From assembly GCF_003334305.1 (NCBI RefSeq), contig NZ_QOWS01000036.1: a DNA stretch of 26,302 nt; one strand, given 5' to 3'. The stretch is from Escherichia coli (GTDB lineage: Bacteria; Pseudomonadota; Gammaproteobacteria; Enterobacterales; Enterobacteriaceae). Shown here piece by piece: positions 26,025 to 26,151 of the stretch. Position 1 is the first letter of the stretch, and each line of letters begins with the position of its first letter. The notes under the pieces are model-generated. The model did not search any database. It saw nothing but the letters and a program-made list of their open reading frames with translations, and had not been told where the DNA came from. The position numbers and the translations under genes were made by a program.

Positions 26025-26151
26025 GATTGCTCCCGTTCAAATTCTGCGCAAAGTGTAAATGAGAATGGTTATGATTACAATAGCACAGTTTTATTTGCGC
26101 CATAGTTCAGCGAGCAAAATTACGACTAAATATTTCGAGCTCAAATTACGG

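Follow-up and report, generated by a model that had tools for sequence, protein, structure and literature searches.

The locus examined here raises the question of how the expression of bfd is connected to the iron status of the Escherichia coli cell and, more precisely, of what is encoded in the A/T-rich segment that lies upstream of this gene, in the short gap that separates it from tufA. The product of the gene, the [2Fe-2S] ferredoxin Bfd, promotes the release of iron from bacterioferritin, and bfd counts among the textbook members of the Fur regulon. In a preliminary description of the 26,302-nucleotide stretch of E. coli DNA that was analysed (hereafter, the window), the segment had been put forward as a candidate Fur box. 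We consider it very likely that the segment serves the bfd(-bfr) promoter as its Fe2+-Fur operator, repressing bfd when iron is plentiful. The match to the Fur recognition sequence, the occupancy in vivo of an identical sequence (in iron-replete conditions only) and the Fur dependence of bfd expression have been established here or in published data. The feature is an ordinary Fur operator, already known, and a published ChIP-exo dataset records the binding of Fur to exactly this sequence; what is added here is the anatomy of the operator in an allele other than that of K-12, and its importance is mostly a matter of correct annotation.

The bfd-tufA spacer and its Fur boxes

The last 553 bases of the window match several complete E. 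coli genomes at 100%, and bfr, bfd and tuf are annotated in them. The genes and signals that frame the spacer are the following.

25281 to 25757, minus strand: bfr coding sequence, bacterioferritin, 158 aa, downstream of bfd (open reading frame list and RefSeq annotation of identical genomes)
25830 to 26024, minus strand: bfd coding sequence, bacterioferritin-associated ferredoxin, 64 aa (open reading frame list and RefSeq annotation of identical genomes)
26030 to 26034, minus strand: Shine-Dalgarno sequence of bfd, GGGAG (ACGGGAG is shared by the two E. coli alleles and kept from genus to genus)
26158 to 26181, minus strand: intrinsic terminator hairpin of tufA, AAAAGGGCGC-TTCG-GCGCCCTTTT (folding at -18.5 kcal/mol, z = -2.95)
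26207 to 26302, minus strand: 3' end of tufA (stop codon at 26209-26207)

As the bfd ATG occupies 26024-26022 on the minus strand and the tufA stop codon 26209-26207, the spacer measures 182 bp, which agrees with the figure of about 180 bp that had been given for this gap. From the tufA 3' end through the terminator and down to position 26155, the window is 100% identical to K-12. Conservation of the terminator hairpin extends over 18 genera, and at 2 pairs the changes are compensatory; the hairpin, being symmetric and flanked by runs of A and T, could terminate transcription on both strands.

Within this spacer, the Fur recognition sequence is organised as a cluster of boxes.

26055 to 26085, both strands: Fur operator of 31 bp, made of three overlapping 19-bp boxes in a 6-bp register (matrix, consensus and ChIP-exo)
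26055 to 26073, plus strand: left-hand box GTAAATGAGAATGGTTATG, the 19-mer of the preliminary description (13/19 to the consensus; 12.39 bits)
26061 to 26079, both strands: strongest box, GAGAATGGTTATGATTACA on the plus strand and TGTAATCATAACCATTCTC on the minus strand (14/19 to the consensus on the minus strand; 15.86 bits)
26067 to 26085, both strands: third phased box (6.03 bits)

Matches were counted against the 19-bp Fur consensus GATAATGATAATCATTATC. The A/T-rich 19-mer that had been noticed at about 26055-26073, with 13 of 19 consensus positions, was found exactly there. Its placement needs only to be refined: the operator covers this position, the best register lies 6 bp rightward, and the operator extends to 26085. 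The minus-strand match at 26061-26079 ties for the top count in the window, in which nine positions reach 13/19 and two reach 14/19. The consensus matches overlap at 6-bp steps, an arrangement that is typical of Fur sites. The 15-bp minus-strand core TCATAACCATTCTCA can also be set against the motif derived from ChIP-exo, TGAnAATnATTcTCA, and the two agree at 11 of the 13 specified positions.

Scores were obtained with a palindromic 19-bp Fur matrix, built by iterative refinement from 14 Fur-controlled K-12 promoters, bfd being excluded. These promoters (fepA-fes, fepD-entS, fepB-entC, ydhY, sufA, ydiE, fhuA, fecI, ryhB, sodA, fhuF-yjjZ, cirA, exbB and mntH) were fetched by the coordinates of Chen et al. 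2007. The two strongest boxes, at 15.86 and 12.39 bits, rank first and second among the 26,284 positions of the window, the next one reaching 10.67 bits, and no position in the rest of the 182-bp spacer exceeds 2.8 bits. The exact probability of a score of at least 15.86 bits is 1.6e-6 per position, so that 0.04 such sites are expected by chance per window and 0.0013 per spacer. When the whole window was shuffled 200 times with its dinucleotides preserved, the single-site score was reached in 7 shuffles and the score of the three-box cluster (34.3) in 1. The 14 known promoters, each scored with a matrix from which it had been left out, give values between 4.9 and 21.4 bits (median about 16.2); the candidate lies near this median and is therefore a typical Fur site. 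Scoring with a matrix, which had been suggested as a check on the candidate, thus gives the highest value in the window, level with known Fur sites.

Fur occupancy and the expression of bfd

A study of Fur's pan-regulon covering nine strains of E. coli provides ChIP-exo peaks that can be placed on this sequence (PMC10164565 Dataset 2), their coordinates being 13-bp peak calls and not footprints (PMC10164565). E. coli W has the gene order of the window, and its spacer is identical at 182 of 182 positions. Its bfd peak, P126 (NC_017635.1, 3667868-3667880), reads GGTTATGATTACA and corresponds to 26067-26079 of the window. Strain 042, which also shares the gene order of the window, has peak P119 (NC_017626.1, 3816258-3816270), which reads AATGAGAATGGTT, corresponds to 26058-26070 and is embedded in a 63-nt context identical to that of the window. 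Both P126 and P119 are flagged 'R', that is, present in iron-replete conditions only (PMC10164565). The peak of strain Sakai (NC_002695.1) fits the same site only if one assumes an offset of 118 bp between versions of the record. The MG1655 sheet of the dataset is without a bfd peak (PMC10164565), and MG1655 has the other allele. A comparison with mapped sites had also been suggested as a check: in W and in 042, the peaks coincide with the candidate and fall nowhere else in the spacer. Of the two outcomes that the preliminary description had set against its own proposal, a low matrix score and a Fur site mapped at another place of this intergenic region, neither was observed.

The expression data go in the same direction as regards the iron regulation of bfd, which the preliminary description had taken as known: when fur is deleted, whether in Salmonella or in eight strains of E. 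coli, expression of the gene rises. In particular, bfd belongs to the Fur regulon, by both a peak and differential expression, in 8 of the 9 E. coli strains (PMC10164565), with log2 changes of 2.3 to 7.3 in the fur mutants, and these strains include W, 042 and Sakai, which carry the allele of the window (PMC10164565). In K-12, a Fur ChIP-seq peak at bfd and a Fur-repressed bfd-lacZ fusion have been described (PMC4676285). In Salmonella, bfd was found to be up 5.9-fold in one fur mutant study (PMC3212961) and 95-fold in another (PMC5001712).

A second Fur ChIP-exo peak was observed at 25917-25930 of the window, inside the bfd coding sequence (P125 in W, P118 in 042). Sakai P128 may be its counterpart, its coordinates being placed approximately. 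The label given to this peak by the authors is 'bfr, intergenic' (PMC10164565), yet its position falls in bfd. Across 25758-26024, the region of this second peak, the Fur matrix finds nothing above 3 bits.

The bfd promoter across Enterobacterales and the two E. coli alleles

The position of the boxes relative to the promoter was approached by comparison. A scan of one genome per species yielded 49 Enterobacterales bfd loci, and all 49 have a Fur match of at least 8.7 bits, which in 48 cases lies between -46 and -61 relative to the ATG. In the alignment of the upstream regions, the sequence from the tufA terminator to about -62 is highly variable, and the near-invariant part consists of TGTGCTATTGTAATCATAACyATTCTCATTTACACTTTGCGCA and of the ribosome-binding site. 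In most of the 51 Enterobacterales loci compared, TTG(T/A)AA-17 bp-TAnnnT is the top sigma-70 pattern, at the same position. As this pattern is kept at the same position in most of the compared loci, the hexamers of the bfd promoter can be predicted as follows.

26075 to 26080, minus strand: putative bfd -35 hexamer, TTGTAA (comparison of 51 upstream regions)
26052 to 26057, minus strand: putative bfd -10 hexamer, TACACT (comparison; 17 bp from the -35)
26045, minus strand: predicted bfd transcription start, about 7 nt past the -10, with a leader of about 20 nt (promoter geometry only)

We infer both hexamers and the start near 26045 from the comparative alignment and from promoter geometry. 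A built-in promoter and terminator scan of 25700-26302 reported nothing. The promoter escapes this tool because its hexamers match the sigma-70 consensus at 8 of 12 positions, under a threshold of 9 of 12, and the terminator escapes it because its T run is absorbed into the A/T-extended stem, hence the reliance on comparative alignment and on folding. In the E. coli and Klebsiella transcription start site supplements that were searched, bfd has no entry.

The 17-bp spacer of the predicted promoter, TCATAACCATTCTCATT, constitutes the core of the Fur box, and the operator would fill this spacer and overlap both putative hexamers (in the comparison of 51 loci, with hexamers at 8/12). Boxes placed over the spacer and over both hexamers represent a classic layout for promoter occlusion. 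When iron is plentiful, Fe2+-Fur dimers on 26055-26085 would shut out the RNA polymerase, and bfd would be off. When iron is scarce, Fur would dissociate and bfd would be transcribed, so that the [2Fe-2S] ferredoxin Bfd could then aid the release of iron from bacterioferritin stores. The occlusion itself is a presumed part of the mechanism. The role of Bfd in iron release agrees with the interpretation given in PMC4676285.

The E. coli locus exists in two forms. In the window, as in W, 042 and Sakai, tufA-bfd-bfr stands beside a gene for a 155-aa prepilin peptidase, while K-12 and CFT073 have the order tufA-chiA-bfd-bfr-gspO. Of 5426 complete E. coli genomes, 2256 (about 42%) contain the 130-bp segment upstream of bfd of the window with an identity of at least 90%. 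Since such a proportion of the complete genomes carries a different allele, K-12 is a poor guide to this locus. Indeed, bfd-bfr of the window shares 79% DNA identity with K-12 and CFT073, and its Bfd protein is 87.5% identical to that of K-12, while it is 98% identical to the Bfd of Citrobacter amalonaticus; the allele of the window is therefore the common enterobacterial one. It is nearer to the type of other Enterobacteriaceae, without chiA, and tufA-bfd-bfr-prepilin peptidase is the ordinary gene order. Loci in which bfd is linked to chiA also occur in Enterobacter, Trabulsiella and Kosakonia.

Upstream of the bfd ATG, blastn finds no homology between the window and K-12, and it is a multiple alignment anchored on the coding sequences that reveals the homologous Fur box of K-12. 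Outside the coding sequences, a single block is well conserved between the two alleles, namely ATTGwAATmAkAACyATTyTCATTTA, and it corresponds to the Fur box with its flanking hexamers. Thus, a K-12 regulatory annotation transferred by alignment would miss the site, even though its function and its position are conserved. In K-12, a Fur cluster of 3 sites, spanning 31 bp, scoring 20.2 bits and centred at -40, has been predicted at bfd (Chen et al. 2007), and it carries neither a footprint nor a gel-shift mark in that work (Chen et al. 2007). The cluster of the window is likewise made of three sites over 31 bp, and is centred 46 bp upstream. In both alleles, the Fur box lies in a 17-bp spacer between the putative hexamers TTGwAA and TAnnnT, and both operators are Fur-repressed and homologous. 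Their boxes agree at 17 of 22 positions (AATAAGAACTATTTTCATTTAT against AATCATAACCATTCTCATTTAC), and they extend from -28 to -52 relative to the ATG in K-12 and from -31 to -61 in the window. The differences are that chiA stands between bfd and tufA in K-12, that the sequences flanking the box cannot be aligned, and that our matrix gives 9.5 and 8.8 bits to the boxes of K-12, against 15.9 and 12.4 bits for those of the window.

Other known Fur operators provide further points of comparison. In the fecI promoter of K-12, the matrix selects GAGAATGGTTATCATTACA, which is identical to GAGAATGGTTATGATTACA of the window at 18 of 19 bases and falls together with the fecI cluster for which Chen et al. 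2007 indicate a footprint. The gene and the promoter are however different ones, and this reflects a shared recognition sequence, not common descent. The bidirectional enterobactin promoters fepA-fes, fepD-entS and fepB-entC have clusters of overlapping Fur boxes over the core promoter and are repressed in iron-replete conditions; they differ in that they serve two protein-coding operons, whereas the second direction here would drive at most a short non-coding RNA.

Two other readings of the segment have to be weighed against that of an operator acting by occlusion. One could see in it a chance resemblance due to its A/T richness, with bfd being iron-regulated indirectly or from elsewhere, and it is true that a 13/19 match is no rarity, given the nine window positions at 13 and the two at 14, and that the single-site score was attained somewhere in 7 of the 200 shuffled windows. 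The match nevertheless sits where an operator is expected, in a spacer where 0.0013 such sites would arise by chance and where all remaining positions stay at or below 2.8 bits; its three boxes are in phase, the site is kept across families of the Enterobacterales, and ChIP-exo peaks lie over it in strains of identical sequence. This reading is effectively refuted, and we hold it to be almost certainly wrong. The other reading accepts that Fur binds, and places the promoter elsewhere, at an extended -10 element TGcTATTGT (26089-26081, minus strand), in which case the operator would act as a roadblock past the transcription start. The invariance of TGTGCTATTGT among tufA-adjacent loci speaks for it, as do the TATTGT hexamer, which keeps the key A2 and T6 and has a TG one base upstream, and the promoter search, which chose TATTGT as the top -10 in a few loci. 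Yet the chiA-linked alleles, among them that of K-12 (AATTGA), have lost this element, as have the Erwiniaceae and Hafnia, all of which retain TTGwAA-N17-TAnnnT, and the reading would imply an unusually long and unconserved upstream requirement without a -35. Because the element is conserved only in the tufA-adjacent loci, we rate it lower than the occluded TTGTAA/TACACT promoter, and we judge it quite improbable.

A possible divergent small RNA and other Fur-like matches

The same operator may also face a second transcript. In Salmonella Typhimurium, the published descriptions give the same tufA-bfd-bfr order, a strongly Fur-repressed bfd and a Fur box between divergent promoters, and there the divergent transcript is STnc4000; on the E. 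coli side, one finds a candidate TACAAT, and the body of the putative RNA is unconserved among the genera compared. The corresponding features of the window would be the following.

26076 to 26081, plus strand: candidate divergent -10 hexamer, TACAAT, inside the operator (sequence and analogy with STnc4000; speculative)
26087 to 26186, plus strand: candidate RNA of about 100 nt, up to the shared terminator (promoter-terminator distance; speculative)

The candidate start is near 26087-26089. That the operator also represses such a divergent plus-strand RNA of about 100 nt, as the E. coli counterpart of STnc4000, is a possibility that we hold to be somewhat doubtful, and it would add to the repression of bfd by Fur, not replace it. 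In Salmonella, STnc4000 is read divergently from bfd and has its -10 covered by a Fur box (PMC5001712), and it responded to Fur alone among 18 regulators, being up 12.6-fold in the fur mutant (PMC5001712). In the window, the candidate TACAAT (5/6) lies within the operator and has GTGTAA 17 bp upstream on the plus strand, the conserved block reaches TGTGCTA, past the bfd -35, and the terminator hairpin is symmetric; in many genera, the distance from promoter to terminator is about 97-103 nt. These points are offset by the poor conservation of the RNA body, in which conserved sequence and structure are confined to the terminator (18 genera), by a weak -35 (3/6) and by a run of only four U residues after the hairpin on the plus strand. 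No Rfam family is matched, the best one being STnc130 at 21 bits for a threshold of 55 (E of about 0.5-1), and in Salmonella itself the STnc4000 promoter reporter did not behave as RNA-seq had predicted. Moreover, the extra conserved bases could equally represent the third Fur box, and all the promoter bases are also explained by the bfd promoter together with the Fur boxes. A full arrangement of near-symmetric, back-to-back promoters, each with its -35 over the -10 of the other, in which the operator, in the roughly 42% of E. coli genomes with this tufA-adjacent allele, also represses the plus-strand RNA (26087-26186), appears rather unlikely to us; such an RNA may stop at the tufA terminator read in reverse.

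Nothing relevant emerged when the literature was searched for a small RNA encoded between bfd and tufA in E. coli. An alignment over the full length of STnc130 was also considered and was taken as due to chance, the Rfam hits being below threshold and driven by the terminator.

In the otherwise variable part of the spacer, a moderately conserved motif, CAAAATTACGACTAAATATTTCGAG, was noticed at 26115-26139 on the plus strand, for which Citrobacter, Enterobacter and Silvania give the consensus AAAAATGCGAAnAAATATGAC. Its score with the Fur matrix is below 3 bits, and it could be the seed of the divergent small RNA or the site of another protein.

Elsewhere in the window, the leader of the S10 ribosomal protein operon contains phased Fur-like matches of 9.5 and 7.4 bits (24462-24486), at a distance of 24-48 nt upstream of the start codon of rpsJ; these are probably due to chance. 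Two further Fur-like matches, 6 bp apart and scoring 10.7 and 7.9 bits, with 12/14 to the 7-1-7 core, are located at 7679-7703. They sit on the start codon of a 458-aa open reading frame (7686-9062, plus strand), which we take to be TrkA from its N-terminal residues, and the resemblance arises from the codons ATG AAA ATT ATC ATT. In strain KO11FL, a ChIP-exo peak is assigned to trkA-rsmB-fmt-def (PMC10164565).
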